Positions 2,360-26,996 of a stretch of DNA of 30,125 bases are shown here, piece after piece. Location: contig JBBDRO010000065.1 of assembly GCA_040905425.1 (NCBI GenBank), positions 1 through 30,125 on the forward strand, read 5' to 3'. The position numbers were made by a program, and so were the translations under genes. This stretch comes from Gemmatimonadota bacterium (lineage in GTDB: Bacteria > Gemmatimonadota > Gemmatimonadetes > Longimicrobiales > RSA9). Positions within the stretch are counted from its first letter, which is position 1, and every line of letters begins with the position of its first letter. Below the pieces are notes generated by a model, which made no database searches, had not been told where the DNA came from, and saw only the letters and a program-made list of their open reading frames with translations.

Positions 2360-2539
2360 GTGTCACCAAACCCGCACGCGCCGGCTCCGATCAGTGCGCG
2401 TGCGGGTTTAGTGCGAATAATTGCCACCGGCCGTGCAACCGCGGCGCCTGCACTCGCGCGTGCGGCTCCTGTTGCAATTATCGCCACCAGAGGCACAACC
2501 GCCGCGGAGATCCGCTCTGCGTGCGGCTTTGATGGCACC
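2360..2539. repeat. composite palindromic element, copy A
   Basis: Perfect 14-bp stem AAACCCGCACGCGC/GCGCGTGCGGGTTT (2368-2409); AT cores GTGCGAATAATTGCCAC (2411) and GTTGCAATTATCGCCAC (2471) are 60 bp apart. Confidence 0.8.
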
Positions 2540-2806
2540 CGCGCCCGCCGCGTCCTGCGCCGCATACACCGCGGCGACCCGTGCTCGCATCCCCATGACC
2601 CAGCCACCTATCGCGCGGCGCTGGTTGAGACGCGCAGCGGACCACGCACGGCGCGGGAGCGTGGATGAGGCGGACGTCGCTTGAGAAGAGTACGGCGGCG
2701 GGTGGATGAGTTGGCTCATCCCACCATTCCTGCGCTCGGAAGGGCGGCCGACCTTTCTGGCATGACTGATGTAGCCTGGCGCGATTGGCTCGTCGTTGAT
2801 CTATCC

Positions 2807-2841
2807 TTGACAAAAGGAAGGATAACCACAAATCTTTCCTT
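2807..2841 (+). promoter_or_regulatory. -35 box plus inverted-repeat operator before the AAA ATPase
   Basis: TTGACA at 2807-2812; AAGGAAGGAT-N8-ATCTTTCCTT inverted repeat ending right before ATG 2842. Confidence 0.5.
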
Positions 2842-4173
2842 ATGAAAAGTAAAGTATCACGGGACCTCCTGCGTCTCAAGCTCGACGAGTCGCTCGCGGC
2901 GCCACTGGCAGTAAAGACGCCGCGTGACATCCGCGTGCCGACGATCGGCGGCAAGGTGCTGGCCGTCATCGGTGTGCGCCGGGGCGGCAAGACCTCCTTT
3001 CTGCAGACGCGCATGGCCGAGCGCGTGGCCGGCGGGCTCGCGCGCGAGTCGCAGCTCCTGGTCTCCCTCGAGGACGAGCGCCTGGTCGGGATGAGCGCTA
3101 CGGAGCTCGGCTGGCTCATCGAGGAGCACACCCGCCGAGTGCCCGGTCTCCGACAAAGCGGGACGCTCAGCCTCTATCTGGACGAGGTGCAGCTCGTCCA
3201 GGGCTGGGAAACGCTCGTGCGGCGCCTCGTGGACGAGGGCGGGATCGAAGTGTTCGTGTCCGGTTCGTCGGCCAAGCTGCTGAGCCGGGAGGTGGCCACG
3301 TCGCTACGTGGCCGGGGCATGGAAGTTCTGGTGCATCCGTTTTCCTTCCGGGAGGCGCTGCGCCACGCCGGCAAGGAGCCCAATGTGGCCTGGGAGCGGT
3401 TGAACACCGTGGAGCGGACAGCGTTGGACGGCTGGCTGCGCGTCTATCTCGAGGAAGGCGGCTTTCCCGAGGCGCAACGGACCGAGCGCCGCGACCGGCT
3501 TGCGCTGCTCAAGGGCTATGTGGACGTGATGGTACTGCGGGACGTGATCGAACGGCACGACCTTTCGAATACGCAGGCGCTGCGATGGCTTCAGCGGCAG
3601 CTCCTGGCCACGCCCGGCGGCAACTTCAGCATGAAGAAGCTCTATGACTCCCTGCGCTCCCAGGGCGTGCCGGTGGCCAAGGACACCCTCTACGCCTACC
3701 TGGACCACCTCCAGGATGCCTTCCTCATCCGCACGGTGAGCATGCGCAGCCGATCCGAACGCCAGCGGATGGCCAATCCACGCAAGGCGTATCCCATCGA
3801 CGCGGGGCTCATTCCGCTCTATGCGCGCGCAGGCCGCGAGCACCAGGGACGGGCCCTCGAAACTGCCGTGCTACTCGAACTGGAGCGGCGCGGATACGCG
3901 GCCGATTGGGTCCGTACCGAGGGCGGCTGGGAGGTCGATTTCCTGGCCGAGCGCGCGGGTGATCCTCCGCTGCTGATCCAGGTGAGCCTGGACACGGCGG
4001 AGGACGCCACCTGGCACCGAGAGGTGCGCGCGCTGGAGGACGCGGCGGGGACGCACCCGGACGCCGAGGCCGTGCTGATCACGCTCGATCCGGCGCCCCC
4101 GCCGCACGATCTGCCCCGGGGCTTGCGGTGGAGCCCGGCGGCGCGGTGGTTGCTGGAGGGGGTGGGCGGATGA
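2842..4173 (+). CDS. AAA+ ATPase with C-terminal DUF4143 (COG1373-like)
   Basis: Walker A GVRRGGKT, Walker B LYLDEVQ, SGSS, GGFPE, and C-terminal LETAVLLEL...EVDFL...LIQVS nuclease-like tail. Confidence 0.9.
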   Translation: MKSKVSRDLLRLKLDESLAAPLAVKTPRDIRVPTIGGKVLAVIGVRRGGKTSFLQTRMAERVAGGLARESQLLVSLEDERLVGMSATELGWLIEEHTRRVPGLRQSGTLSLYLDEVQLVQGWETLVRRLVDEGGIEVFVSGSSAKLLSREVATSLRGRGMEVLVHPFSFREALRHAGKEPNVAWERLNTVERTALDGWLRVYLEEGGFPEAQRTERRDRLALLKGYVDVMVLRDVIERHDLSNTQALRWLQRQLLATPGGNFSMKKLYDSLRSQGVPVAKDTLYAYLDHLQDAFLIRTVSMRSRSERQRMANPRKAYPIDAGLIPLYARAGREHQGRALETAVLLELERRGYAADWVRTEGGWEVDFLAERAGDPPLLIQVSLDTAEDATWHREVRALEDAAGTHPDAEAVLITLDPAPPPHDLPRGLRWSPAARWLLEGVGG

Positions 4174-4353
4174 GGGACGTCGGTAGAGACAGGTGCTGCG
4201 CCTGCATCCGCTCGAAGTAGTGGTCCATACGGCCGAAGGCCGCGCGCGTCTCGGCGTCCATGAGCTCCAATCTAATCCTCAGGAGGCGCACGGCCATAGC
4301 AGGATGGGACGGTCACGTTGTGCACGTGACCGGCCGCCCGGTAAATTGCTTTC

Positions 4354-5811
4354 ATGGCCTTTCGCTGGCATACCCCACCCCCATCCATCCGTACCGCCGC
4401 ACGTGCGCTGGCGGGCATCTTCGCGGGGGTTGCCGTGGTCCTCCCGCCGCTCCGGCTCGTCGGTCTGCTGAGCTGGCCCTGGGCGCTGGTCACGGCGCCG
4501 CTGGCGCTGCTCGGCGCGGTGGCGCTGGGGGTGCTGGCCTGGCGCTGGCTGCGCACCGGAGGCGTGGACGCCTGGCGGCGCTTCCTGCAGGTCATCGGCG
4601 TGGCCAATCTGGCGCCGCCCCATGTGATCGAGGTGCCGCGTGACGCCGTGGGCCCCAAGCACGCCATCCTGGCCGAACATCCAGAGCTGCTGGCCGCGCT
4701 CTGCCTGGGGCTCCGCACCCGTAGCCAGACTTCCAAGGTGCTCGGCCAGCGGGTGGCGGACGGCTGGGCCGTCTTCGAGGCGGTGCTGGCGGGCGCGCCG
4801 GAGAGCTTCGACGAGCTGGCGGACGTGGCCGCGCTCCACATGCGTGCCTATGCGCTCGCCGGCAAGCGGAAGAGCGGCGTCCTGCCCTCGGATTCCCGGG
4901 CCCTCAAGAACGCCGCCGATGCCTTCCGCCGCTGCGCCGCCAAGAACGCAAAGGGCCGTTCCCGCCTGAGCTGTACGTTCGAGCATCTGGTCACCATGTA
5001 CGGCGCCGGTGTGTCCAGCCGGGACGCTCAGCTGCGCAAGGTGGCCCCCCGCGTGCGCGCGCTGCTGCACAGGAAGTATCCGCACCTGGCCGAGCCGCCG
5101 CCGGCGGAGGATGCGCCCGCCGTGGAGCTGGAGAAGCTGCGGCGCCAGCTGGTGCGGCGTGAGGACGAGGCGGCGCGGGCGCGGCGCGAGGCGCTTCGGC
5201 TGCAGGGCAAGCTGGAGGAGGCGCAGAAGCAGCTGGCGGAGGCGGAGGCGGGCCGCAAGAAGCTGAAGGCGGCGGCCCGCGCCACCCGCAACCGGGCGCG
5301 CGCCGAGGCGCGCGAAGAGCAGGCGGCGGAGCTGGCGGAGCTTCGTGAGCAGGTGGAGGCGGAGCGCGCCGAGCGGGCGCGGCAGGCCAGTCGCTTCGAG
5401 GCCGAGCGGGAGCGGATGCAGGCCGCCGCCGAGGCGCTGCAGGCCGACCACGACGCGCTGGAGGCCGCCCTCTTCAAGGGGGAGGAGGAGGCGGAGGAGG
5501 CCAGCGTGGCCGACGTCCTCCTGCCCGGCATGCGCATCCTGCTGGTGGGCGGTCACGACGGCCAGCTGCCGCCCCTGCGCGCCTACCTGGCGGACCGCGG
5601 CGTGCAGCTCGTGCACCAGGACGGCGCCAGCGCCGCCGACCTGGTGGCGGGCATGGACCTGGTGGTCCTCTGGACCCTCTGGGTGAGCCATCCCACGATG
5701 TTCGCCGTGAAGCGGGAGTGCGCCATGCGTGAGGTGCCGGTGGGCTACTGGTCGCGGACATCGCCGGAGAGTCTGCTGGCGCTGGTGGCGGGGACGTTGG
5801 CGGGGCGGTAG
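4354..5811 (+). CDS. membrane-anchored coiled-coil protein with C-terminal DUF2325-like domain (paralog 1)
   Basis: Two N-terminal hydrophobic segments, long E/R/A coiled coil, C-terminal RILLVGGH...DLVVLWTLWVSHPTMFAVKREC; collinear with 12100-13548. Confidence 0.8.
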   Translation: MAFRWHTPPPSIRTAARALAGIFAGVAVVLPPLRLVGLLSWPWALVTAPLALLGAVALGVLAWRWLRTGGVDAWRRFLQVIGVANLAPPHVIEVPRDAVGPKHAILAEHPELLAALCLGLRTRSQTSKVLGQRVADGWAVFEAVLAGAPESFDELADVAALHMRAYALAGKRKSGVLPSDSRALKNAADAFRRCAAKNAKGRSRLSCTFEHLVTMYGAGVSSRDAQLRKVAPRVRALLHRKYPHLAEPPPAEDAPAVELEKLRRQLVRREDEAARARREALRLQGKLEEAQKQLAEAEAGRKKLKAAARATRNRARAEAREEQAAELAELREQVEAERAERARQASRFEAERERMQAAAEALQADHDALEAALFKGEEEAEEASVADVLLPGMRILLVGGHDGQLPPLRAYLADRGVQLVHQDGASAADLVAGMDLVVLWTLWVSHPTMFAVKRECAMREVPVGYWSRTSPESLLALVAGTLAGR

Positions 5812-6104
5812 GGGGTGGGAGGGGTATACGGTCTTGAGCGGGATCATGCCCGCCTTCTTCGACAGGGTCGAAGCTGTCATCCGTGAGATCGTCGTGGCAC
5901 TCGACGAGGCCGGCAAGAGCGGCGCGGGCCATGGGGGAGGCGGGACGAGCATGGAAGGTGATGGGCATCGTCGCTTGAAATGAAGACGTGTCGAGTGGAG
6001 AAGAAAGCGTCAGCCGGCGGGCTGGCCCTTCCCGGTGGTGAGTGAACGGCGGCAAGGGAAGGAGCAGCTGGACTGCTCGGCCGCAAGGGATGTTCTGCCG
6101 CATG

Positions 6105-6142
6105 GTTGAGCCAAAATACTTTATAAAGTATTTTGGCTTAAC
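6105..6142. repeat. AT-rich palindrome, copy 1
   Basis: AGCCAAAATACTTTA|TAAAGTATTTTGGCT is a perfect 30-bp palindrome (6109-6138), extendable to 38 bp with one mismatch. Confidence 0.9.
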
Positions 6143-6280
6143 GGCGCGCCGCATGGTGCCCGGTGCCCGACACTCCCGCAACCACGCCCCCCGCTCCAGC
6201 GCGATGTTCGTTCCCCCGCCTGCCGCAGTGCACCATCCCGCGCTGCTTCCCCCCCACATCGTTCCGACTTGCCCCCCCAC

Positions 6281-6388
6281 CGTAACGAAACGTAACGTTC
6301 GGGCCGGCGGCGGCGCCCGCGGCTTCCGCTACATCCCGCTGGCGGGCAACCGCTTTCCCCTGCCGCCTCCCGGCGGCACGACCCTGGC
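6281..6388 (+). promoter_or_regulatory. putative enhancer plus sigma54 -24/-12 promoter of the response regulator
   Basis: CGTAACG-AAA-CGTAACG at 6281-6297; CGGCACG-ACCC-TGGC at 6374-6388 has correct GG-N10-GC spacing. Confidence 0.55.
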
Positions 6389-6401
6389 CGATGGGCCCAC
6401 C

Positions 6402-7736
6402 ATGCTGAGAATTCTGCTCGTCGAGGATGACGAGGCGGTGCGCCGCTCGCTGGCGGATGCGCTGACCGATGAAGGCGCGGAGGTCCATGCCGTGGCCAGC
6501 GCGGAGGAGGCGCTCGGGCGCGTGGCCGAACTGGCGCCCGACGTGGTCGTGTCGGACATCCGCATGCCGGGCATGGACGGGCTGGAGCTGCTCCGGACGC
6601 TGCGCGAGCGCTGCCCCGCGGTGGACGTGGTGCTGGTGACCGCGTACGACGACATGGGCACGGTGGTGAGCGCCATGCGGGAGGGCGCCTTCGAGTTCCT
6701 GGTGAAGCCGCTGCGCGCGGCCGAGCTGCGGGCGGTGCTGGCGCGTCTGGCGGAGGATCGCCGGGTGCGCGAGACGGCGCGGCTCGGGCAGCAAGCCGAG
6801 GCGGAGGCGCACCGCCTCGAGGGGCTGGTGGGGCGCGATCCGGCCATGATCGATGTCTACAAGCGCGTGGGCCAGCTCGCGGCCAGCCGCGTCAACGCGC
6901 TCATCCGTGGTGAGACCGGCACCGGCAAAGGGATGGTGGCCCGCACCATCCACTACAACTCGCCCGATGCGGCGGAGCCGTTCATTGCGGTGAACTGCAC
7001 CGCCCTGCCCGAGGCGCTCCTCGAGTCGGAGCTCTTCGGCCATGTGCGGGGGGCGTTCACGGGCGCGGTGGCGGATCGTCGAGGGCGCTTCGCGCTGGCG
7101 GGGCGGGGGACCGTCTTCCTGGACGAGGTGGGAGACACCACGCCGGCCTTCCAGGCCAAGCTTCTCAAAGTCATCGAGGAGGGCGAATACTATCCGGTGG
7201 GCGCCGACCGCCCGGAGCAGAGTCGGGCACGGGTCCTGGCCGCCACGCACCGGGACCTGGAGGCCAGGGTGGTGGACGGGAGCTTCCGGCAGGACCTCTA
7301 CTATCGGCTGCGGGTGGTGGAGATCCGGCTGCCGCCCCTCCGGGAGCGGCCGGCGGACATCCCCCTGCTGGCGCGGCACCTGGTGACGGTGGCCAGCACC
7401 GAGCTGCACCGCCAGCCGCCGCGCCTGGGTGAGGAGGCGCTGGCCGTCCTCCTCCAGCATGACTGGCCGGGCAACGTCCGGGAGCTGCAGAACTGCCTCA
7501 CCCGCGCGCTCGTGCTGGCCACGGGCGGCGTGATCCAGCCAGAGCACCTCGGGATCGTGCGCCCGGCGGCCGCGGCGGACGCGCCGTTCGCCACCCTGGA
7601 GGCGGTGGAGGCGGAGCACGTGGCCAGGGCGCTCGCGCTCACGGAGGGCAACCGCACACGGGCGGCGGAGATCCTGGGCATATCCAAGCCGCGCCTCTAC
7701 CGCATGATGGAACGCTTCGGACTGCCGCGCGCATGA
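6402..7736 (+). CDS. sigma54-dependent NtrC-family response regulator (REC-AAA-Fis HTH)
   Basis: MLRILLVEDD, DIRMPGMDG, GETGTGK, GAFTGA, FLDEVG, WPGNVREL and GNRTRAAEILGIS; true start at ATG 6402. Confidence 0.95.
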   Translation: MLRILLVEDDEAVRRSLADALTDEGAEVHAVASAEEALGRVAELAPDVVVSDIRMPGMDGLELLRTLRERCPAVDVVLVTAYDDMGTVVSAMREGAFEFLVKPLRAAELRAVLARLAEDRRVRETARLGQQAEAEAHRLEGLVGRDPAMIDVYKRVGQLAASRVNALIRGETGTGKGMVARTIHYNSPDAAEPFIAVNCTALPEALLESELFGHVRGAFTGAVADRRGRFALAGRGTVFLDEVGDTTPAFQAKLLKVIEEGEYYPVGADRPEQSRARVLAATHRDLEARVVDGSFRQDLYYRLRVVEIRLPPLRERPADIPLLARHLVTVASTELHRQPPRLGEEALAVLLQHDWPGNVRELQNCLTRALVLATGGVIQPEHLGIVRPAAAADAPFATLEAVEAEHVARALALTEGNRTRAAEILGISKPRLYRMMERFGLPRA

Positions 7737-9496
7737 GGGAGCGGCGCTGGCGGCCGGGGCTGCGGGGGCGCTTTCTGCTCGTGGTGCTGGTGGCCGTGGT
7801 GCTGCCGCTGGTGGCCACCACCGCGTGGCTCGGCCGCTCGGTGCAGCGGGCCTCATTGGCGGCGGTGGAGCAACGGCTGGACCGTCAGCTCGTGGCCGCC
7901 GCCAACGAGGTGGGGCAGCGCTGGGTGGCGCTCCGTAGCCAGCTGCTGGACGTGGCGGAGGACTCGCTCGCGCGCGCCGTCCTGGCCGGCGACTCGGTGG
8001 CGGCCACGGCCTGGCGCGAGCGCTGGCGCGGCGCCGTGCCCGCCGCGTCCCACGTCGAACTCATCGATGCGGCGGGGCGCCCGCCGTTCACGCTGCGTAC
8101 CACGGGTGGCGCGGGCCGAGCCGCTGCGTCCGCACAGATGGTGCGCGTGGCACTGCCGGTGCACGCGCCCGACGGCCGCCGCGCCGGCACCCTCATCGCG
8201 GCCTTCTGGCCCGGGGCGCTCATCCCCGAGCATTTCGGCTTCGGCGGCGCGGCCGCGCTGCCGGGGGTCCTGGCGCCGGATGGATCGCCGCTGGGTAGCA
8301 TGCCAGAGGGCGTCCGTCTGGACCTGCCGTCGTTCCGCTGGCAGGGGGAGGCGTGGCTCACCCGCACCTTCGTGCTGCACGATCCGCCCCTCACGCTGGC
8401 GCTCGCGGCCCCGGTGACGCCGCCGGAATCCTTCGCGGCCGCGGCGCAGCGCGGCCTGCTGGTCCTCCTGCTGGTGCTGGCGGGCACGCTGGTGCTGGCC
8501 ACGCTGCTGACCCGGAAGGTGACGGCGCCGCTGGAGCGTCTCTCCGCTACGGCGGGTGAGGTGGCCCTCGGTCGCTTTGAAGGAAGTGTGCACGAAGCCG
8601 GGCCGCCGGAGGTGCGTCAGCTGGCGCGAGCCTTCAATACCATGGTGGACAGCCTGCGCGGCCTGGTGCGCCGCCTGGGGCAGCAGGAGGCGGCGGCCGC
8701 GGTTGGGCAGTTCGCCGCCTCCCTGGCGCACGAGGTGCGCAACCCGGTGACGGCCGTGCGCCTGGACCTGGAGCGCGCCGCCGACCGGCTGGCTCGCGGC
8801 GAGCACGCGGACGATCTCCTGCGACGCGCCCTGGAGCAGGTGGACCGCCTGGACGCCACGGTGCAGGGCACCCTGCGCATTGCTCGCAGCGGCAACCTGC
8901 GCTTGCAGCCGATCGATCTCCGCCAGCCGGTGGCCGCCGCCCTGCGTAGTGCCGCCCCGGCGTTCAGGGAGCGCCGCCTCCCGCTCCCGTCCTGGCCACG
9001 TCAGGACCGCAGCGTTCCTGTTCAAGGCGACGTCGCCGCGCTGCAGCAACTGCTCCTCAACCTTCTCCTGAACGCCGCGGAGGCGTCCGCGGCCGCGGCT
9101 GCGCAGACGCGTGTCACGGTGGAGCTGCGCAGCGCGGGCGCCGAGGTGGAGCTCCGCGTTGTGGATGCTGGCGTGGGGATGACGCCCGAGCAGGTGGAGC
9201 GCGCCTGCCAGCCGTTCTACACTACGAGCGCGGATGGCACCGGGCTCGGGCTCACCATCGTGCGGCGCATCGCAGAGGCCCACGGCGCCGAACTGCGCGT
9301 GGACAGCCGGCCGGGGGAGGGGACCACGGTGCGCGTGGTGTTCGAGCGCGCCGGTGAGGTCGGTGCGGCCGCCGCGGCGGATGGGGTGGACGGAGCGGAT
9401 GAAGTGGACGGGGCGGATGCGGTGGATCGGTCTGATGCGGAACCGGCACGAAGCGTAACGCCCGCCGCGCCAGCCGGCGCCCCGCCGAGGCGCTAA
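7733..9496 (+). CDS. membrane sensor histidine kinase (HAMP-HisKA-HATPase)
   Basis: Two TM segments, HAMP (PLERL...EVRQLARAFNTM), H-box AHEVRNP, N-box NLLLNAAEA, DAGVGM, GTGLGL; ATGA-coupled to the regulator. Confidence 0.93.
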   Translation: MRERRWRPGLRGRFLLVVLVAVVLPLVATTAWLGRSVQRASLAAVEQRLDRQLVAAANEVGQRWVALRSQLLDVAEDSLARAVLAGDSVAATAWRERWRGAVPAASHVELIDAAGRPPFTLRTTGGAGRAAASAQMVRVALPVHAPDGRRAGTLIAAFWPGALIPEHFGFGGAAALPGVLAPDGSPLGSMPEGVRLDLPSFRWQGEAWLTRTFVLHDPPLTLALAAPVTPPESFAAAAQRGLLVLLLVLAGTLVLATLLTRKVTAPLERLSATAGEVALGRFEGSVHEAGPPEVRQLARAFNTMVDSLRGLVRRLGQQEAAAAVGQFAASLAHEVRNPVTAVRLDLERAADRLARGEHADDLLRRALEQVDRLDATVQGTLRIARSGNLRLQPIDLRQPVAAALRSAAPAFRERRLPLPSWPRQDRSVPVQGDVAALQQLLLNLLLNAAEASAAAAAQTRVTVELRSAGAEVELRVVDAGVGMTPEQVERACQPFYTTSADGTGLGLTIVRRIAEAHGAELRVDSRPGEGTTVRVVFERAGEVGAAAAADGVDGADEVDGADAVDRSDAEPARSVTPAAPAGAPPRR

Positions 9497-9550
9497 ATGT
9501 TTGCCCTGCAGGCGGTTGGCTGTTCGTGCGCCGCGCGGCACGGGACTGGT
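9448..9550 (+). promoter_or_regulatory. putative enhancer plus sigma54-like promoter of the beta-propeller gene
   Basis: ACGAAGCGTAACG (9448-9460) matches 6285-6297 at 12/13; CGGCACG-GGAC-TGGT at 9536-9550 (imperfect -12). Confidence 0.45.
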
Positions 9551-9597
9551 TGAGAGAGGGCGGCCATGTCACGTGCCCACTCTGATGTGAGGACCTC

Positions 9598-11430: not shown

Positions 11431-11483
11431 GGTGGGCGGGCGGGTGAGGTGCGCGCCCCGCGCCGGCGGCGGCCACCGCCGCC

Positions 11484-11940
11484 CTACGCTGCCCCGGTCG
11501 CCGGGCGGGCCGGCGCCCGGGCCAGCGCCTGCGCCACGTCCACCAGGACCGCTTCGCTGTCGTGCCGCAACCGCCGCGCTGTCAGGCGGATGACCGTCAC
11601 GCGGTGGCGGCCGCGGCCCGAGTCGTCTTCGCGGTCTTCCTCGAAGTTGCGGCGCGATTTGTGGAAGCGGTAGCCGTCGAGTTCCACCACCACGCCCTCA
11701 TGCCGCCAGAGGAAGTCCACCTCCCGACCCATGAACTGGGCGTTCACCTCGGGGGCGGGTAGCCGGGCGCGCCTGACCATGGCAAGGAACGTCTCTTCGA
11801 GTGGCGAGCGGGTGAACGCGGGCCCGGCGGCGGCGTCCAGCAACTCCCGCAGCTGACGCATGCCGGCGCGTGAGGGGTGGCGCGCCGCGAGTGCGCCGAC
11901 GTCCTCCAGGGTCACCAGGTTATGGCGCTCCGCCCGGGCG
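11484..11940 (-). pseudogene. 5'-truncated AbiEi/DUF559 endonuclease gene
   Basis: TRSPLEE...EVDFLWRHEGVVVELDGYRFH...VIRLT aligns to the C-terminal half of 15179-16291; homology stops near 11940 and the N-terminal AbiEi domain is absent. Confidence 0.7.
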
Positions 11941-12099
11941 CGGTGGCCGCGAGCACGTGGGACGGTTGGGCGCGGTCTGCATAAGTGCGCGGCCCCTGGC
12001 ACGACGTGCTCCGCCGTGCCACCTTAGCCAGCGCCATCCTCGACCGCATCTTCCGTCGGCCCCGCCGCCCGAGCCCGAGAGGAGGACCGCCCGCCGGCC

Positions 12100-13548
12100 A
12101 TGCGTATGCGTCTGCTCGCCGCCGCCGCCACCGCCGCCCGTGTCCTGGCGGGCGTCTTCGTGGGGATTGCTGCGCTGCTCCCGCTGCTGCGGGCCGTCGG
12201 CCTGGTGGACTGGACGTGGGTCGTGGTCACGGCTCCGCTCGCGGCGGTGGGCGCGTGCGCCCTCGGCGCCGGGGTATGGCGCCGCCTGGCCCCTGCTGTC
12301 GTGGAGCCGTGGCGCCGGCTGCTGCGCGTTGGCGGGGTGGTGCTCACGCCGGCGCCCGCGCGGCTCGAGCGGCTTCCGGAGGACACCGGCCCCCACGCTA
12401 TCCTGGCCAAGCATCCCGAACTCCTTGCAGCGCTGTGTCTGGGCTTCCGCACGCGGCGGCGGACCAGTCGGGTGCTCGGTCGCCCCGTGAGCGACGGCTG
12501 GGGGATCTATGAGGCGGCCACGGCGGGGGCGCCGGAGTGCTTTGAGGTGCTGTCGGAACTGGCGGCGCTGCACACGCATGCATATGCCGTGAAGGGACAG
12601 CGCGAGGACGGGGCCCTTCCTTCCGAATCCAAGATGCTCAAGCGCGCCAGCCGTGCCTTCCGCAACTGTGCCGTCAAGGCTAAAGCGGGACGCACGAACG
12701 TGAGCTGTACGTTCGAGCATGTGGTGGTGATGTTCGGCACCCAGGTGCCGAGCAGGGACGAGAAGCTGCGCGCGGAGGTGCCGCGCCTGCGCTCGCTGCT
12801 GGAATGGAAGTACCCTCGGCTGGCGGAGGGCCGCGTCGAGGCCGAAACGCCGGCGGCCGAGATCGAGCGGCTTGAACGTGAGCTGGTCCGCGAGCGCAAC
12901 GAGATCACTCGCGCGCGGCGTGACGCGGAGCGCCAGCGGCGCAAACTGGAGGACGCCCGCGGGGCGCTCGCTGAGGCCGAGGCGGACCGGAAGGCGCGCA
13001 AGGCCAGCGCCCGGGCCACGCGCCAGCGGGCACGGGCCGAGGCGCGCGCCGAACAGGAGGAGGCGCTGGCGGAGCTGCGCGCCGCGCTGGAGGAGGAGCG
13101 GGCCGCGCGGCAGCGCCAGACCACGCGCTTCGAAGCGGAACGGGAGCGGCTCGCCGCGGCCTACGAGACGCTCCGCGCGGATCACGACGCGCTCGAGGCG
13201 GCCCTCTTCGAGCAGGACGGGGACGCGGACGAGGAGAGGGAGGTCCCCGACGTCCTCCTGCCCGGCGTGCGCATCCTGCTGGTGGGCGGACACGAGGGCC
13301 AGCTGCCCACCCTGCGGGCCTTCCTGGCGGAGCGCGGCGTGCAGCTCCTCCACCAGGACGGCCCGACCGCGGCCGACCGCGTGGGCGGCATGGACCTGGT
13401 GGTCCTCTGGGTCCGCTGGGTCAGCCACCCCACGGCCGCCGCCGTGAAGCGGGAGTGCAGCGTCCGCGAGGTGCCGATCGCGTACTGGAAGCGTGTGTCG
13501 CCGGAGAGTCTGCTGGCTGTGGTGGCGGGGACGTTGGCGGCGCGGTAG
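12100..13548 (+). CDS. membrane-anchored coiled-coil protein with C-terminal DUF2325-like domain (paralog 2)
   Basis: Same architecture as 4354-5811 with identical blocks (HPELLAALCLG, SCTFEH, ADHDALEAALF, SPESLLA); GAGGAGG upstream. Confidence 0.8.
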   Translation: MRMRLLAAAATAARVLAGVFVGIAALLPLLRAVGLVDWTWVVVTAPLAAVGACALGAGVWRRLAPAVVEPWRRLLRVGGVVLTPAPARLERLPEDTGPHAILAKHPELLAALCLGFRTRRRTSRVLGRPVSDGWGIYEAATAGAPECFEVLSELAALHTHAYAVKGQREDGALPSESKMLKRASRAFRNCAVKAKAGRTNVSCTFEHVVVMFGTQVPSRDEKLRAEVPRLRSLLEWKYPRLAEGRVEAETPAAEIERLERELVRERNEITRARRDAERQRRKLEDARGALAEAEADRKARKASARATRQRARAEARAEQEEALAELRAALEEERAARQRQTTRFEAERERLAAAYETLRADHDALEAALFEQDGDADEEREVPDVLLPGVRILLVGGHEGQLPTLRAFLAERGVQLLHQDGPTAADRVGGMDLVVLWVRWVSHPTAAAVKRECSVREVPIAYWKRVSPESLLAVVAGTLAAR

Positions 13549-13827
13549 GGGGGTGGCGGGGGCGGGGGCGGGGGTGGCGGGGCGCGCTGCATAGGGGTAC
13601 GGCGAGACGGGAGGGCGGCACGGGCTGCCTGAGCGCCCGGTTCGAGGGGCTGGTGGTAGTGCTGCCGGCACATGTGGCCGGAGCGTGCCATGTCGATGTC
13701 CCGGGCGGCTATGGTGGCGAACGGTTGGGAGGACCATCGTTATGGGCACGGTCTTTCAACGCGTCGCGGAGCATCATCTCGAAGCGGTACTGGATACTTC
13801 GAAGAGTTAGCCCTGAGGAGGTGGCCG

Positions 13828-14115
13828 GTGGCCCAGGAACACCTGATCTACAACGGCGTGAGAGTCATCGCAGGCTGGCCGGAGCAGATCGAGGCAGCGC
13901 AGTCTGAAACGGCCGTCGTGGTCAACGGCGTGCTCAGGTCGCGGGTGCCGTATGGTCAGGAGGGCGGCAGGTGGACTGCCGATCGCGCGTGCCACGACTG
14001 TGCGGTGGTGCGGGGGCAGTATCATGTTCCGGGCTGCGACGTCGAGCGTTGTCCCGCCTGCGGGGATCAACTCATCGGCTGTGACTGTGAGTTCGATGGC
14101 CATGACGAGGAGTAG
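13828..14115 (+). CDS. small Cys/His-rich putative metal-binding protein
   Basis: GAGGAGG RBS at 13815-13821, GTG at 13828; CHDC...HVPGCDVERCPACGDQLIGCDC. Confidence 0.7.
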   Translation: MAQEHLIYNGVRVIAGWPEQIEAAQSETAVVVNGVLRSRVPYGQEGGRWTADRACHDCAVVRGQYHVPGCDVERCPACGDQLIGCDCEFDGHDEE

Positions 14116-14140
14116 ACCGTGTGGCGGTGCTGCGGCCGGA

Positions 14141-14349
14141 GTCTGCATAAGTGGGCGGCCTGCGGGCGGTGGTGTGTCAGCGGATGCGCACGCGCGGGGG
14201 TCGGCGGCCGCGGTTGTGGGATTCGTCGGAATTATTGCGATCAGACCCGCACGCGCGAAACCGGCGGAGGAGCGTGCGGCTTTCGTGGGAATTATTGCTG
14301 CTAACGCCGCGAACGTTCGGGGCGGAGCGTGCACGTGTGGGTTTGGTTG
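14141..14349. repeat. composite palindromic element, copy B
   Basis: Begins GTCTGCATAAGT; cores GGAATTATTGC at 14228 and 14288 (60 bp apart) flank AGACCCGCACGCG...GCGTGCGGCTTT; ends GTGGGTTTGGTTG. Confidence 0.85.
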
Positions 14350-14457
14350 GGCGGGCGGCTAGCGGAGCCCGCCAGCGCGCACTTCTCGTCCCTTCCAGGC
14401 ACGGATCCACCCCGTATCAGGCCCAATGGCGGAGTGTTATGCGTCGCGGCTGGCCGC

Positions 14458-14508
14458 TTGACACGCGGCAACGCCCCGGGTTAGCGTTAGTGTGACTATA
14501 GTCTCACT
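14458..14508 (+). promoter_or_regulatory. promoter and palindromic operator of the AbrB-Doc module
   Basis: TTGACA (14458), 18-nt spacer, TAGCGT (14482); AGTGTGACTA|TAGTCTCACT palindrome (9/10) at 14489-14508. Confidence 0.65.
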
Positions 14509-14525
14509 CATACTGGAACCCTATT

Positions 14526-14759
14526 ATGAACACGTTGACGAGCCGGACGCGCGCGCAGGGCGCCTCGGTGGTCACCACGCTTCCGGCTGAGGTCGTTCGC
14601 CGGCTCGGCATCCCGGCTGGCCAGGAACTGGCATGGATCGAGGATGGGCTCGGTGGCTTTCGCGTAGTCCCGCACACCCCGGAGCTTACGGAAGCCCTGG
14701 ACGCGCATGAAGCCATCATGGCGGAGTACGAGAGCGTCTTTCGCGAGTTGGCCAGGTGA
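14526..14759 (+). CDS. AbrB/MazE/SpoVT-family antitoxin
   Basis: RAQGASVVTTLPAEVVRRLGIPAGQEL swapped-hairpin pattern; C-terminal IMAEYESVFRELAR typical of Doc-associated antitoxins; GTGA overlap with the toxin. Confidence 0.85.
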   Translation: MNTLTSRTRAQGASVVTTLPAEVVRRLGIPAGQELAWIEDGLGGFRVVPHTPELTEALDAHEAIMAEYESVFRELAR

Positions 14760-15166
14760 CCTCGGGGGCCTCACCCGACGAGCCACGATGGGTGACGGAA
14801 ACCATGCTGCTGGCCATCCATGCCCGGCAGATCGAGCGCTATGGCGGTGCGCATGGGACACTGGATCCGAACGTCGTGCGGTCCGTGCTGGCGCGCCCGA
14901 TCCATCGATGGGCCTATGAGGAAACGGCGGACCTTGCGGACTTCGCCGCCGCCTACCTCGTGGGATTCGCCCGGTCGCAGGGCTTCAACGACGGCAACAA
15001 GCGCACAGGCTTGGCCTGTGCGCTCGTGTTTCTAGCATTGAACGGGCACGCGCTTCACCGCCCGCCGAAGGAGCTCTACGCGCTCGTGATGCAGGTGGCT
15101 ACCGGCCAAACCGATGATGCCGCAGTGGCTGCGTATTTTCGCGCGGGGATGGTGAGGAAGGTCTGA
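14756..15166 (+). CDS. Doc/Fic-family toxin
   Basis: AIHARQIERYGGAHG, SVLARP, and Fic-like motif QGFNDGNKRTG. Confidence 0.9.
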   Translation: MTSGASPDEPRWVTETMLLAIHARQIERYGGAHGTLDPNVVRSVLARPIHRWAYEETADLADFAAAYLVGFARSQGFNDGNKRTGLACALVFLALNGHALHRPPKELYALVMQVATGQTDDAAVAAYFRAGMVRKV

Positions 15167-15178
15167 CATTGCTCGCAG

Positions 15179-16291
15179 CTAGTGCTGGCTCGTGCGGCCA
15201 TTCAATCCCACGTCATAAAGCGCCAGCGCCCGTGCGATATCCGCCACCACCGCCAGCGGCTCGGCCGTGATGTCCTGCCAGGTCAACCGGATGACGCGCA
15301 GATTGGCCTTCACGAGGTCCCTGTCCCGGCGGCGATCATCCTGGAATTTGGCGCGGCTGCTATGGAAGGCAAAGCCGTCCACCTCCACCACGAGCCGCTC
15401 GCGACGCCAGAGGAAATCCCGCTCCTTCCCCTCGAAGAGCACGTTGGTCTCGAACGTGGTCAGCCCCGCATCCGTCATCAGCCTGCGGAAGCTCGATTCG
15501 GCCTCGGATCTGACAAAGGCCGGGCCTCCCTCGATGGCCAGCACCTGGCACAGGACGCGCGTGCCCGGGCGGCCCTTATGGCGCTCCAGCAGCCGTTTCA
15601 TCTGAGCGACCGTCACCAGGCCCAAGCGCTCGCCGCACGCCACCATCCGTTCCACCTCACGTCCATCCCGCGAGGCCGCCGCCAGATCGAAGATCGTCCG
15701 GGCGGGCGTGGTGATCGGGATGCCGCGCAGTTCCGTCCTCTCATCCTCCTCCATTCCGCGTACTACGTGCACGTGCAGGCTGCCTCCCGACCCCCTGCCC
15801 GCCCGCCGCACGGTCACCTCCACCGGGACGCCGGCCCCCGGGGAGCGCGCCAGCTCCCAGAGCGCCGCCGCACTGCCGCCGCTCAGCATGGCCGTCGGCC
15901 CACACGCCAGCACGGCAGCCATCTCCCGCTCGCAAGGCGCGGACAGCGGGCCCACCCCGTAGACGCCCGAATGCAGCCGCCGCAGCCGCTTCTTCTGGTT
16001 CCGGTAGTTGATCGCATACACCGAGACTCCGGCCTCCAGCAGCTGCTTCCGTGTCACCACGCCATGCTGGCGTGCGGCCAGCCGCCGGATGATGGAGTCG
16101 GGGTCCGTGCGCGCGGGGTCCGTGCGCGCGGGTTGCGTCCGGGCGGGTTCCGGCTGGGCGGGGTCCATCTGGGCGGGTTCCGGCTGGGCGGGGTCCATCC
16201 GGGCGGGTACTGTCCCGGCCGGTGTGGCGTTCATGCCGCCACTTCGTGGTGGGCCGCCAAATGCGGTTCGACGGTCAGTGAGGGTGCTCAT
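15179..16291 (-). CDS. AbiEi-like N-terminal HTH plus DUF559 (Vsr-like) endonuclease; start uncertain
   Basis: LAARQHGVVTRKQLLEAG...LRRLHSGVY; GIPITTPARTIFDLA; RSEAES; DFLWRRERLVVEVDGFAFH...DRRRD...VIRLTW. Confidence 0.85.
   Translation of the reverse strand: MSTLTDRRTAFGGPPRSGGMNATPAGTVPARMDPAQPEPAQMDPAQPEPARTQPARTDPARTDPDSIIRRLAARQHGVVTRKQLLEAGVSVYAINYRNQKKRLRRLHSGVYGVGPLSAPCEREMAAVLACGPTAMLSGGSAAALWELARSPGAGVPVEVTVRRAGRGSGGSLHVHVVRGMEEDERTELRGIPITTPARTIFDLAAASRDGREVERMVACGERLGLVTVAQMKRLLERHKGRPGTRVLCQVLAIEGGPAFVRSEAESSFRRLMTDAGLTTFETNVLFEGKERDFLWRRERLVVEVDGFAFHSSRAKFQDDRRRDRDLVKANLRVIRLTWQDITAEPLAVVADIARALALYDVGLNGRTSQH
16102..16208. repeat. 15-bp in-frame tandem repeat (about 7 degenerate units)
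   Basis: Units such as GGGTCCGTGCGCGCG and GGTTCCGGCTGGGCG encode MDPAQ/PEPAQ/TDPAR pentapeptides. Confidence 0.8.
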
Positions 16292-16430
16292 GGGGTCACC
16301 TCGTGGTAGGCGTCTCGCGGCGATGCGGCATGCCGACGGTTCGGCGGACGGTGGTTCCGGTGTGGACATCCTCAGGGTGGGGGCTGGGCGGGGGCGGCGG
16401 AATGGCGGGATGGGACAGATTGGCGGCGGG

Positions 16431-16586
16431 CACGGGGTCGGCGGCCGCGGTTGCGGGATTCGTGGGGATTATTGCGATCAGACCCGCACGCGCGAAATCG
16501 GCGGCGGCGCGTGCGGCTTTAGTGGCGATTATTGCTACTAGATCTCCAACCGCCTGGGACGGACGCGCCGCGTGCGGGTTTGGTGG
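16431..16586. repeat. composite palindromic element, copy C
   Basis: GGGGTCGGCGGCCGCGGTTGCGGGATTCGTGGGGATTATTGCGATCAGACCCGCACGCGCGAAA is nearly identical to copy B; cores at 16465 and 16525. Confidence 0.85.
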
Positions 16587-16597
16587 GCCGCATCCGT

Positions 16598-16690
16598 CCA
16601 TCGGCCGGGCGGATCGGTCCACCGGCGGGGCGCATCGGCCCACCGGCCGGCGGATCGGCCCACCGGCGGGCGCATCGGTCCACCGGGCGC
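16598..16690. repeat. degenerate 20-21 bp tandem repeat (about 4 units)
   Basis: CCACCGGC(C/G)GG(G)CG(C/G)ATCGG(C/T) repeated downstream of the ppc stop. Confidence 0.7.
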
Positions 16691-16719
16691 CGCAACCGTT
16701 TACCGGCCGGGCGCCTCGG

Positions 16720-19557
16720 TCACCCCGTGCTCTGCATGGCCGCCGCGATGCCGTTGATGCTCAGAAACAGCAGCTCGCGGAGCGCTTCGCGTTCGGCTTC
16801 CTCCTCGGCGGCGCCGTAGCGCTCCAGCAGCTCGAGCTGCAGCAGGTTCAGCACGTCCGTGTAGGGGTTGCGGAGCGCGATGGATTTCTGGATGACGGGG
16901 CTGCCTTCGAGCAGCTCGCGCTGGCCGGTGATGCGGAGGATGGCCTCGCGGGCGGCGGTGAAGTCGGCCTGGATGCCGGCGAAGATGCCGCGGCCTCCGG
17001 GTCCGGCCGCGCCGCCCGCCGCTTGCGCGCCGCCCGCAGCTTGCGCGCCGCCCGCCGCCTCCGCCCGCGCGGCATACCGCTCCGCGATCTCCAGGCGCGC
17101 GCGCGCCATCTCGCGCTGGGCGTTGTCCACTACCGCCCGGAAGAAGGGCCAGTCGCGGTAGAGGTCGGCGGCCAGCGGGCCGTCTTCCTCGAGCGCCTCG
17201 GCCAGGCCGGCGCCCACGCCGTACCAGCCGGGCACGATGGCGCGGATCTGCGTCCAGGAGAAGACCCAGGGGATGGCGCGCAGGCCCTCGAAGTCCACTT
17301 CCGCGGCGGCTTTACGGGATACGGGGCGCGAGGCTATGGGCAGTCGGCTGATCTGCTCGATGGGCGTGGCGGCCACGAACCAGTCCCAGAAATCCGCACG
17401 CTCGATGAGGGCGCGGTACGCGCCCATGGAGGTGGCAGCGGCGCGGTCCATGAGGCGGGCGGCGGGCGCGGCTGCGGGGACGTCGCTTACATGAGTTGTG
17501 ACGCTGGAGAGGAGCACGGCGCTCACCAGTTGCTCGGCGTGGCGGTGCGCGATGCCGGGCAGGGCGTAGCGGAAGCTGATGACCTCCCCCTGCTCGGTCA
17601 GGCGGATGCGACCGTTGTGCGCGGCGGCGGGCATGGCGGCAATGGCCTGGTTGGCGCGGCCGCCGCCCCGGCCCACGGTGCCGCCGCGGCCGTGGAAGAG
17701 GCGGAAGTCCACGCTGTGCTCGCGGCACACGGCGCCGAGGCTGGCCTGCGCCTGGTGGAGCGCCCAGTTGGCCATCCAGTAGCCGCCGTCCTTGTTGCTG
17801 TCCGAGTAGCCGAGCATGATCTCCTGGAAGTTGCCGCGCGCCTCCAGGTGCTGGGCGTAGAGCGGGTCGGCGAAGAGCGTGGCCATCTGCGCGGCGGCGC
17901 CCTCCAGGTCAGCCACGGTCTCGAAGAGCGGCACGAAGTTCAGGGCGCTCTCCACGCGGCCACCGCGCATACGCCAGAGGCCGGCTTCGCGGGCCAGGAG
18001 CATGGGTTCGAGGAGGTCGCTCACGGTGTGGGTCATGCTGACGATGTAGGCGCCCACGCTGTCCGGCTCGGCGGCGGCCATGTCGGCGATCACGGCAAAG
18101 GTGTCGAGGGCGTCGCGGGCGGCCTCGGGCGGCGCGGTGTCCTCGCCGAGCAGGAGGTCGGGCCGCTCCAGCTCGGCGCGCAGCAGGTCCACGCGCGCGC
18201 CCTCGTCCAGGGCGGTGTAGTCCTCCGTGCGGCCGGCGGCGGCGAGCAGCGCGGCCACCGCTTCCTCGTGGACGTCGCTGTGCTGGCGGACGTCCAGGGC
18301 GGCCAGGTGCAGACCGAAGGTGCGCACCAGCACCCGCGCGCGCTGCAGCCGGCCGTGGCGGGCCACGGACTCGAAGCCGCTCTCGGTGAGGGAGCGGGCC
18401 ATGAGATCCAGGTCGGCCAGGAGATCGGCGGCGTTGTAGCTACCGGGCGCGTTGGCGGGTCCGGTGGGCGCAGCGGGTTCGGGGGGTGTTCCGTGGTTCG
18501 TGGGCGCCAGGGCGGCGAGCATGCGGGTCAGGAGGCGTCGATAGCTTTCACCCGCGAAGCGCTCCTCGTCGGGGGCTGCCGCGCCCTCGGCCAGGCGGCG
18601 CTCGAGGGCCTCGGGTGGCTGGGCCAGGCGGTCGGAGATGGCCAGTTCGTCGCGGAGCGCCTCCAGCTCGCGGCGGTGCAGCGCCACGGCGGCGGTGCGC
18701 TGGCGCTGGAAGGTCCAGCGGGTGACCTCGGGGGTGACGTTGGGGTTGCCGTCGCGGTCGCTGCCGATCCACGAGCGCCAGCGCAGGAAGACGGGCACCT
18801 CCACGCCCTCGGCCTCCTCGCCGTAAGCGGCCACCAGGGCGCGCTGCACGTCCCGATGGATGCGCGGCGCGGTGTCCCGGATGGTGGACTCCAGGAAGTA
18901 GAGGCCGTGCTCCACCTCATCGCGCACGCTGGGGCGCTCGCCGCGCACCTCGGCGGTGGCCAGCAGGAGGGCCACCTGGTCGTGCAGGGCGTCGGCGGCG
19001 TCGGCGGCCTCGGCGGGGATGGCATCCGCGCTGCGTAGCTCGGCCAGCAGTTCGGCGATGCGGCGCTGCTCCTCCAGCAGCGTGCGGCGGCGCGCCTCGG
19101 TGGGGTGCGCCGTGAGGGTGGGCTGGATGTCCAGGCGCTCGAGGGCGGCCAGCACCTGGGGCAGCGAGTGGCCGGCCGCCTTCAGCTGCGCCACCGCCTC
19201 CGCGATCGACTCGGGGCGGGGCGGGCCGCCCGCCGCCGCGGCCCGCGAGCGCTCCCGGTTCACACGCAGGATTTCGCGTTTTTCGGCCTGGTTGACCAGG
19301 TGGAAGAAGGCGCTGTAGGCGCGCAGCAGCCACGCCAGTTCGCCACGGTCCATGCCGCGGATGCGCCGGGCGGCCTCCTGGCGCAGCTCCGGCCGGCCGT
19401 CGGCGGCCTCCTTGCAGAGCAGCCGGAGTTCCTCCACCTGCGCGAAGACGGCGCCGCCGGCGCGGCGGCGGACCGCGTCGCCGAGCAGCGTGCCGAGCAG
19501 GTTCACGTCCTCGGAGAGGGGTAGCGAGATGCCGGTGGTGGTGTCGTTTTGGGTCAT
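16720..19557 (-). CDS. ppc: phosphoenolpyruvate carboxylase
   Basis: LTAHPTE, SWIGSDRDGNP, VPLFET, QEIMLGYSDSNKDGG, FHGRGGTVGRGGG, TEQGE, LRAIPWVFSWTQ, GIAAAMQSTG. Confidence 0.97.
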   Translation of the reverse strand: MTQNDTTTGISLPLSEDVNLLGTLLGDAVRRRAGGAVFAQVEELRLLCKEAADGRPELRQEAARRIRGMDRGELAWLLRAYSAFFHLVNQAEKREILRVNRERSRAAAAGGPPRPESIAEAVAQLKAAGHSLPQVLAALERLDIQPTLTAHPTEARRRTLLEEQRRIAELLAELRSADAIPAEAADAADALHDQVALLLATAEVRGERPSVRDEVEHGLYFLESTIRDTAPRIHRDVQRALVAAYGEEAEGVEVPVFLRWRSWIGSDRDGNPNVTPEVTRWTFQRQRTAAVALHRRELEALRDELAISDRLAQPPEALERRLAEGAAAPDEERFAGESYRRLLTRMLAALAPTNHGTPPEPAAPTGPANAPGSYNAADLLADLDLMARSLTESGFESVARHGRLQRARVLVRTFGLHLAALDVRQHSDVHEEAVAALLAAAGRTEDYTALDEGARVDLLRAELERPDLLLGEDTAPPEAARDALDTFAVIADMAAAEPDSVGAYIVSMTHTVSDLLEPMLLAREAGLWRMRGGRVESALNFVPLFETVADLEGAAAQMATLFADPLYAQHLEARGNFQEIMLGYSDSNKDGGYWMANWALHQAQASLGAVCREHSVDFRLFHGRGGTVGRGGGRANQAIAAMPAAAHNGRIRLTEQGEVISFRYALPGIAHRHAEQLVSAVLLSSVTTHVSDVPAAAPAARLMDRAAATSMGAYRALIERADFWDWFVAATPIEQISRLPIASRPVSRKAAAEVDFEGLRAIPWVFSWTQIRAIVPGWYGVGAGLAEALEEDGPLAADLYRDWPFFRAVVDNAQREMARARLEIAERYAARAEAAGGAQAAGGAQAAGGAAGPGGRGIFAGIQADFTAAREAILRITGQRELLEGSPVIQKSIALRNPYTDVLNLLQLELLERYGAAEEEAEREALRELLFLSINGIAAAMQSTG

Positions 19558-19639
19558 GCGCGGGGCGGGGCGCAGGTATCGGGCCGGGGGGTGGGGGAGG
19601 GGGCGGTGGCGGCGGGCTTATGCGGCGTGCGGGCGGTGC

Positions 19640-19770
19640 GGTGTTGTCAAACCCGCACGCGGGGCATCGTGGGCGGACGCTTGCGGGTCTGGTCGGAATA
19701 ATCGTGGCTAATCGTGCAACCGCGGCGGCCTTATGCAGCGCGGGCGCCGCGAGTGGTGGCCTTATGCAGC
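19640..19770. repeat. composite palindromic element, copy D (partial)
   Basis: GGTGTTGTCAAACCCGCACGC...GCTTGCGGGTCTGGTCGGAATAATCGTGGCTAATCGTGCAACCGCGG followed by two CTTATGCAG motifs. Confidence 0.75.
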
Positions 19771-19928
19771 CAGGGCACGCCTCAGGGCGCAGCGCTGCCG
19801 CCAACCGCTCGAATTTGAGAAGGATCGCGCGCGCGATTGCACGCGCGCGTGTCCATTTGTCCAACGTCGGAGGACCGGGCGGGCAGCCCCCGCGCCGCGG
19901 TTAGGCAGCCTGCCCGCCCGCGCGCCGT

Positions 19929-20136
19929 GCAACCAAACCCGCACGCGCACCACCCCGCCCGGACGCTTCCAGCTCTGGTGGCAATTATCGCCACTAGCGC
20001 CGCACGCGCGTCCGGCGAATTCGCGCGTGCGGGTCTGGTCGTGATATTTGCGACTAATCGTGCAACCGCGGTGGCTGCACCTCGCGCGTGCGCTTCCGAT
20101 AGCACCCCACCCCGCGACCTCCGCGGACTTATGCAG
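19929..20136. repeat. composite palindromic element, copy E (inverted relative to B and C)
   Basis: Cores GCAATTATCGCC (19981) and GTGATATTTGCG (20041); reverse complement is collinear with copies B and C, including the terminal CTGCATAAGT. Confidence 0.85.
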
Positions 20137-20183
20137 CGCGCCCCGGACTTATGCAGCGCGCCCCGGACTTATGCAGCGCGCCC
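20124..20183. repeat. 20-bp tandem repeat, 3 copies
   Basis: CGGACTTATGCAGCGCGCCC repeated three times exactly. Confidence 0.9.
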
Positions 20184-25711: not shown

Positions 25712-25805
25712 GGGTGGTGGTGTGAGGGGCGCGGCGTGAGGGGCGCGGTGTGAGGGGCACGGCGTGAGGGGCACGGCGTGAGGGGCACGGCGTGAGGGGC
25801 GCAGC
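25708..25805 (+). repeat. 14-bp tandem repeat, 7 units
   Basis: GTGAGGGGC(A/G)CGGC units start at 25708, 25722, 25736, 25750, 25764, 25778 and 25792. Confidence 0.92.
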
Positions 25806-26805: not shown

Positions 26806-26897
26806 CGGAGGCGGGCGGAGGCCGGAGCGGAGGCGGGCGAGGCCGGAGCGGAGGCGGGCGAGGCCGGAGCGGAGGCGGGCGAGGCCGGAGCGGAGGC
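26806..26897. repeat. 21-bp tandem repeat (about 4 copies)
   Basis: GAGGCCGGAGCGGAGGCGGGC at 26818, 26839 and 26860, plus partial flanking copies. Confidence 0.9.
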
Positions 26898-26954: not shown

Positions 26955-26996
26955 CGCGCCGTTAAGCCAAAATATCTTATAAGATATTTTGGCTCA
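26955..26996. repeat. AT-rich palindrome, copy 2
   Basis: AGCCAAAATATCTTA|TAAGATATTTTGGCT perfect 30-bp palindrome (26965-26994); flank CGCGCCGTTA shared with copy 1 in inverted orientation. Confidence 0.9.

Follow-up and report, generated by a model that had tools for sequence, protein, structure and literature searches.

Many bacterial genomes carry dispersed palindromic repeats without a RAYT (REP-associated tyrosine transposase, where REP stands for repetitive extragenic palindrome), and we know of no job for the DUF559 fusions annotated as "AbiEi antitoxin". A 30,125-nucleotide contig of a Gemmatimonadota bacterium (order Longimicrobiales, family RSA9; assembly GCA_040905425.1, contig JBBDRO010000065.1, positions 1 to 30,125) ties the two together. 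The best relatives of its ppc gene (67-72%) belong to Longimicrobiales and other Gemmatimonadota, which are the likely group of the host. This stretch, called the window below, contains five copies of a palindromic repeat array, two of which bracket a gene for an AbiEi-DUF559 protein. We consider it probable, with some reserve, that the element is the binding array of this protein and has likely been copied round the chromosome by means of its nuclease, as REPINs are by RAYTs.

Three described systems are closest. In REP/REPIN-RAYT systems, a low-copy chromosomal enzyme is flanked by its own repeats, with one repeat population for each paralogue (10.1101/2021.07.10.451892; PMC3733652). AbiEi monomers bind 23-bp half-sites with a 3-bp spacing (PMC3985639). 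The Rv2827c operator is arranged as 23-13-23-4-23-13-23, with gaps of 13 bp within pairs and 4 bp between them, and AbiEi and Rv2827c do not bind each other's sites (PMC7319586). AbiEi also triggers the phosphorylation of its toxin (10.64898/2026.01.19.700257). The nuclease I-Bth0305I is a Vsr-like dimer whose footprint of about 60 bp consists of two 30-bp half-sites (PMC3239194); DUF559, 3hrl, and 3r3p have been classed with Vsr (PMC3424549).

The locus resembles REP/REPIN/BIME-RAYT and TIR-TIRYT systems in its dispersed extragenic palindromes, in an enzyme gene that is chromosomal, low in copy number, rare on plasmids, and placed between repeats of its own family, and in having one repeat population per paralogue. 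Unlike in those systems, the enzyme is an AbiEi joined to a Vsr-like PD-(D/E)XK nuclease and not an HUH tyrosine transposase, the arms show neither covariation nor a conserved stem-loop, six half-sites are held in a rigid 181-bp frame, and no terminal tetranucleotide tag was seen in this genome. The system works like REPIN-RAYT with a different enzyme and is not a member of it. With the AbiEi and Rv2827c operators it shares inverted 23-bp half-sites, tandem arrays, an array upstream of the gene, and a predicted AbiEi fold; it differs in having six sites instead of two or four, gaps of 14-1-13-1-14 bp, and about 25 copies, and, unlike in AbiE operons, the partner is fused to a nuclease and lacks an adjacent AbiEii toxin gene. 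The predicted Vsr-like domain, with its conserved acidic and histidine residues, recalls I-Bth0305I (EDxHD) and Vsr. In contrast to an EDxHD homing endonuclease, the gene is associated with no intron or intein, its product has a different DNA-binding part, and it is flanked by what are likely its own sites rather than cutting an intron-less allele. By the tests run, element and gene are not an AbiE operon, an intronic homing endonuclease, or a MITE (a miniature transposable element with inverted repeats). A literature search, outside of which lay most subscription journals and supplements, found no description of this partnership of repeat and AbiEi-DUF559, and the accessible text of the RepRanger paper (PMC12306157) mentions neither DUFs nor Gemmatimonads.

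The repeat array and its partner gene

All five copies listed in an earlier note on this DNA were recovered. These copies, their tail motifs, and the AbiEi-DUF559 sequences of the window are the following:

2359-2539, + strand: copy c1, complete (six half-sites by the half-site matrix), between hipA and an AAA_14/DUF4143 gene
11484-11939, - strand: C-terminal remnant of a second AbiEi-DUF559 gene (profile positions 153-292 only)
14143-14151, - strand: tail motif of 9 bp at c2; one subfamily of copies has it after the sixth half-site
14173-14353, - strand: copy c2, complete (six half-sites), the downstream bracket of the AbiEi-DUF559 gene, past a mazE-like/doc pair
15179-16291, - strand: AbiEi-DUF559 gene with AbiEi_4 and DUF559 domains, between c2 and c3
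16447-16590, - strand: copy c3, five half-sites, upstream of the AbiEi-DUF559 gene and a candidate operator
19640-19723, + strand: copy c4, a partial one with three half-sites and gaps 14-1; tail motifs come after it, near 19730 and 19761
19926-20106, + strand: copy c5, complete (six half-sites), upstream of ppc
20128-20176, + strand: three tail motifs in tandem with a 20-bp period, after c5

A full copy consists of six 23-bp half-sites in alternating orientation, separated by 14-1-13-1-14 bp and 181 bp long in total, with the first and last half-sites inverted relative to each other. The half-site matrix was built from 19 aligned full copies, after 8 of the 27 matches in the genome had been excluded as partial, contig-end, or degenerate; in the window, 26 sites exceed 9 bits with this matrix, every one of them inside the five copies. 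The core centres (2419/2479, 14233/14293, 16470/16530, and 19986/20046) are exactly 60 bp apart in all four multi-core copies, as had been claimed, while the outer period of the element is 61 bp, not 60. With at most one mismatch, the tail motif is found at the 3' end of seven of the 27 matches and at the 5' end of one (background 0.0014). Copy c2 has a positional counterpart in L266, a metagenome contig from a relative, and relative to L266, c3 has lost its sixth half-site and tail. No sigma-70-like promoter or terminator was found at 16200-16760.

The earlier note took GC hairpins as the unit of the repeat, a view that a test of arm covariation did not bear out. Pairing arms should match better within one copy than between copies; the arms within a copy are no more alike than those of different copies. 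None of the five neighbouring arm pairs covaries (p 0.37-0.96), nor does the terminal pair (p 0.42), and the lowest p value among 15 arm pairs (0.03) belongs to two arms of identical orientation. In the relative G047, none of seven arm pairs covaries across 24 copies (p 0.09-0.79); arm pairs 1-2 and 5-6 of its family B were out of register and were not used. The consensus fold from RNAalifold has an energy of -1.13 kcal/mol, and c5 alone folds with a z score of -2.56, as a palindromic sequence would. Given the lack of arm covariation, the weak consensus fold, and the absence of any Rfam match in the window, a hairpin or structured RNA unit was rejected. Because the arms do not covary, the element looks like a set of double-stranded protein sites rather than hairpins, and its sequence pattern agrees with duplex sites of a protein that depends on a fixed spacing. 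A protein-coding reading as a 20-amino-acid repeat was likewise rejected, since the outer period is 61 bp and no codon-position pattern is present; stop codons occur in 15-18 of the 19 copies in four of the six frames, and in 3 and 9 copies in the remaining two.

The conserved core spacing described in the earlier note stood, whereas the likely partner gene (AbiEi-DUF559, 15179-16291, - strand) and the match of this geometry to AbiEi-type operators had been missed. The open reading frame (ORF) extends to 16369, and we infer the start at 16291 from the L266 orthologue; a GC-rich tandem repeat of 15 bp (16084-16233) extends the N-terminus of the ORF and is shorter in L266. The gene is free-standing between doc and ppc, is not encoded in an intron or intein of a host gene, and is the only intact one among three matches in the genome. 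An N-terminal AbiEi-DUF559 fragment is located at G000:C51:37594-37794, about 350 bp after what looks like a group II intron's 3' end. Compared with the L266 orthologue, codon positions 1, 2, and 3 are conserved at 0.87, 0.91, and 0.81.

An AlphaFold model calculated from 27 homologues reached a pLDDT (predicted local distance difference test) of 88. In a Foldseek search, this predicted model matched the whole two-domain AbiEi 6y8q (E 1.6e-5, 198 columns), and also Rv2827c (1zel) and the I-Bth0305I nuclease 3r3p (TM 0.81). Residues E204, D231, E242, D244, and H249 (numbering on 16108-15179) are invariant in all 27 homologues. H249 is aligned opposite an alanine in 3r3p, which is likely the H213A change named in PMC3239194. 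The protein is predicted from the model to combine a two-domain AbiEi fold with a Vsr-like PD-(D/E)XK nuclease that has the predicted catalytic residues. No AbiEii (DUF1814) toxin is encoded next to the gene, and PF08843 matches are found only on contigs C67, C18, C46, and C21. Canonical AbiE systems were rejected as binders of the array: three of these four AbiEii contigs lack the element, and the gene on C18 lies 1.6 kb from a partial copy. The AbiEi-DUF559 gene seems to be chromosomal and to move seldom. Of 72,556 plasmids, 5 carry a homologue, and of 50,697 phages, 1 does.

The repeat family in the genome and its linkage to the gene

An iterated nhmmer search, of the kind that the earlier note had proposed, returned 27 matches in the 4.12-Mb, 70%-GC genome and none in the reversed genome. 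One copy was counted twice across overlapping contig ends and one match is a 42-bp contig-end fragment, which leaves about 25-26 dispersed loci. The possibility raised at the outset that the copies are only local, decayed duplications does not agree with this distribution; the description as a distinct, dispersed, intergenic, and gene-less repeat family, whose spacing is kept despite sequence divergence, holds throughout the genome and in relatives. The matches lie between ORFs, and five of the 27 are on the 30-kb contig that carries the AbiEi-DUF559 gene (P 1.5e-6). The mean pairwise identity of the copies is 59% (48-90%); nevertheless, 12 of the 22 near-full copies have no indel relative to the consensus, and most of the remaining copies have 1-bp indels only. 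The symmetry centres are 30-30.5 bp apart, with lags of 60, 61, and 121 bp (19 copies), and the conservation of positions is 0.56-0.73 in the half-sites and 0.34-0.58 in the gaps. Solitary half-sites are not above chance (at 15 bits, 9 outside the arrays versus 20 in the reversed genome).

When tabulated, the neighbouring genes proved to be varied and mostly housekeeping (enoyl-CoA hydratase, LigD, Omp85, PurD, IF-1, ppc, and others), and no regulon emerged. Among 85 neighbouring ORFs scanned (111 were called), none has a transposase, integrase, or resolvase domain. The absence of a RAYT, first noticed in the window, extends to the whole 96.7%-complete genome (no PF01797 match, with 6 of 14 control genomes positive). 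The element has no match in 72,556 plasmids. A scan of 185,579 genomes for an exact pattern found none, which is uninformative since the pattern matched only once in its own genome.

A blastn search with c5 against 40 relatives gave four marginal short matches; the elements in relatives were found by profile search. Related elements are present in 12 of 36 genomes of the same family; two other families of the order, represented by 24 genomes, have none. When the profile was run across the class, a single genome out of 150 others matched at E 1e-5, with just 4 of the 150 belonging to the same family. The element is present in 12 of the 24 same-family genomes that have the gene and in none of the 12 that do not (Fisher p 0.002, or 0.015 when a weak protein match in G010 is counted as absent; the genomes are kin and not independent). 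Gene and repeat are linked in more than one genus. Among 60 relatives, the homologue at G002:C609 is the closest, and one of the strongest element matches of its genome lies upstream of it, in the position seen in the window. Two sets of matches were set aside: three identical ones in G009 reflect duplicated contigs and not an insertion sequence, and a profile match in G008 (L042) is spurious, being coding sequence. At L265:530-709 (G012:C4), a related element and a broken AbiEi-DUF559 gene are 1.8 kb apart, in a genome where copies of this family are few, as would be expected if the repeats decay after loss of the gene.

L266 has 86% DNA identity to the window, carries an orthologue that is 82% identical, and keeps the order ppc - element - gene - element. 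A partial element takes the place of the mazE-like/doc pair of the window, and a different hipA (L266:4197-5725) lies between two copies. The two L266 copies that flank the gene share a 10-bp deletion that is absent from both window copies; they are 85% alike mutually and 80-81% identical to their positional counterparts. As the flanking copies are more alike than positional counterparts, copies appear to have been replaced or converted. For c2, the nearest copy is a third one in L266 (88%).

Across homologous loci, the same repeat was present on both sides of the gene in 12 of 64, versus none of 80 ppc controls. Of 57 flanks on either side, 8 upstream and 7 downstream had a six-site score of at least 0.5 with a period of 60-62 bp, whereas none of 143 controls did; at off periods, 5, 1, 2, and 2 flanks scored as high. 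A homologue from Tsukamurella (31% identical) is flanked by an inverted pair of 41-bp palindromes of the form 20-1-20 (L281:1371-1412 and 2365-2406).

The complete genome G047 has seven paralogues of the gene, and each of the five that were tested has its own dispersed repeat family. With at most 40 candidates scored in each search, these found about 26, 17, 11, 3, and 2 further loci in G047. These families have no match in the genome of the window or in G051; elsewhere, two families have one weak match each in G042, and one has weak matches in G012. Four families were aligned (29, 18, 10, and 6 copies); they differ in sequence and have lags of 60-62 and 121-123 bp, with symmetry centres 30-31 bp apart. 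At 82-94% identity, the G047 families are young. At L034 (G047:C1:867378-867796), the unit also takes the form of an open tandem array, with about seven repeats of 61 bp, and similar arrays are found in G008, G010, and G048.

A proposed mechanism and its alternatives

Binding of 23-bp inverted half-sites by AbiEi would explain the 60/61-bp period of the element. Each half-site of the duplex would be occupied by one AbiEi module, with six modules on a full element, and one period would amount to 23+23+1+13 or 14 bp, that is, two half-sites plus core plus gap. The upstream copy c3 would double as the operator of the AbiEi-DUF559 gene. The nuclease domains of facing subunits would come together and nick or cut the DNA, either across the variable gaps of 13-14 bp or at the cores of 1 bp, and host recombinational repair would then copy or convert the array. 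On this reading, the AbiEi-DUF559 protein likely binds the arrays, would nick or cut them, and likely spreads them.

Several observations weigh against this proposal. The empty sites and target duplications that the earlier note suggested looking for did not turn up (no empty site was found, and tests on the flanks gave p 0.18 and 0.44), and the ends of the element are fuzzy. The proposal leaves unexplained how such a nuclease, with 25 targets in the chromosome, would be kept under control. A shared repeat on both sides is absent at 52 of the 64 homologous genes. Two of the seven paralogues of G047, which were outside the family searches, show no two-sided repeat. Most homologous genes lack this family itself: a score of at least 12 bits is reached upstream at 5 of 59 homologue flanks and downstream at 1 of 57. 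The ppc controls are mostly coding DNA from other taxa, and when tested for the period their upstream set also had p 0.006. The protein tree, whose deep branches are weakly supported, does not unite the carriers of this family, and the window and G002 proteins sit apart from a weakly supported cluster in it. The single palindrome on each side of the Tsukamurella gene indicates that the six-site array is not universal.

An AbiEi-bound array could instead serve regulation or chromosome organisation and multiply by ordinary recombination, with some other task for the nuclease. AbiEi represses transcription and bends DNA (PMC7319586), two G047 families have a peak in A/T content at a period of 10.2-10.3 bp, L266 tolerates a 10-bp deletion, and the 19 scored copies lie between tandem (12), divergent (5), or convergent (2) genes. 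We nevertheless regard this explanation as rather unlikely: the neighbours form no regulon and some copies lie between convergent genes, the families are genome-specific, and in G047 young, with each paralogue bracketed by its own family, and in the genome of the window the 10-bp peak ranks under one at 8.6 bp. Another conceivable role is that of recombination sites similar to those of integrons or pdif modules, at which the nuclease would start the exchange of toxin-antitoxin and defence cassettes. In L266 the mazE-like/doc pair of the window is replaced by a partial element and two copies enclose a different hipA, and hipBA and the AAA_14/DUF4143 gene flank c1. Most of the 21 other matches are among housekeeping genes, though, the 85 neighbouring ORFs scanned include no recombinase domain, and such turnover could be a by-product of the proposed copying; this role appears improbable to us. 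No module-skipping contig joint was among the joints listed from six DNA runs, a result that shows nothing about absence.

It is very unlikely that these are classical single-strand REP, BIME, or REPIN sequences moved by an HUH transposase (RAYT or TIRYT) that was lost or left unassembled. The bracketed gene does not encode an HUH enzyme, and PF01797 is missing here while 6 of 14 control genomes have it; neither the lack of arm covariation nor the consensus fold of -1.13 kcal/mol suits a single-stranded substrate, even if the element is palindromic, intergenic, and without target duplication, c5 folds as single-stranded DNA with z -2.56, and the gene could be missing from a 96.7%-complete assembly. 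The arm consensus of this genome contains no GTAG or CGTC tag; CGTC occurs inside, and not at the end of, some arms in relatives, which may be chance. We give equally little credence to a MITE, a decayed end of a DDE insertion sequence, or a Tn3-type res site. The terminal half-sites are the best conserved (0.73 and 0.69, versus 0.56-0.67 for the others) and are mutually inverted, as such an origin would have it, but the fuzzy ends, the missing target duplication, the absence of transposase and resolvase domains from the 85 neighbouring ORFs, and the lack of a match in 72,556 plasmids all speak against it.

The proposal that AbiEi-DUF559 binds and spreads the arrays can be extended, although we offer the extension only tentatively and think it may well be wrong. 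A toxin-antitoxin repressor joined to a Vsr-like nuclease would have made a selfish, self-spreading element out of its own operator. The protein would be a natural paired-half-site nuclease, with two DNA-binding monomers opposite each other on either side of a free 13-14-bp spacer, much like engineered FokI fusions, and each paralogue would read its own 23-bp code and keep its own population of 181-bp repeats on double-stranded DNA. If true, REP-like repeats would have a second route of origin, one that does without an HUH enzyme; it would show an operator becoming a mobile repeat and point to compact nucleases with long, diverse recognition sites. The 181-bp array, the half-site matrix, and the predicted catalytic residues supply exact substrates, and the five paralogue-repeat pairs of one complete genome, G047, are mutual specificity controls, so that binding, cut position, and cross-reactivity become directly testable. 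Tsukamurella, a cultured actinobacterium, is a tractable model.

Other features of the window

Two genes are variable cargo between c2 and the nuclease gene, and both are absent from the syntenic L266:

14526-14759, + strand: MazE-like antitoxin
14756-15166, + strand: Doc toxin

In DNA run X4, the contig over the mazE-like region (14391-14785) has a depth of 33, versus about 2 for the rest of the stretch, and in runs X2 and X3 the contigs depart from the window at 14584 and 15163. The mazE-like/doc pair may be shared with another organism.

A second dispersed family consists of an AT-rich, near-perfect palindrome of about 29 bp, found in the window at 6109-6138 and 26955-26996 and at about 20 loci in the 70%-GC genome. 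One copy is located at the start of a GntR-family gene (26989), and the palindrome could be the operator of a regulator or a chromosome-organising site. Besides the 15-bp repeat in the AbiEi-DUF559 ORF, GC-rich tandem repeats are found at 16595-16707 (20 bp), 25692-25813 (14 bp), 26818-26897 (21 bp), and 30040-30125 (9 bp). Two DUF2325 coiled-coil paralogues (4354-5811 and 12100-13548) lie 7.7 kb apart and have 70-78% DNA identity in the stretches listed.

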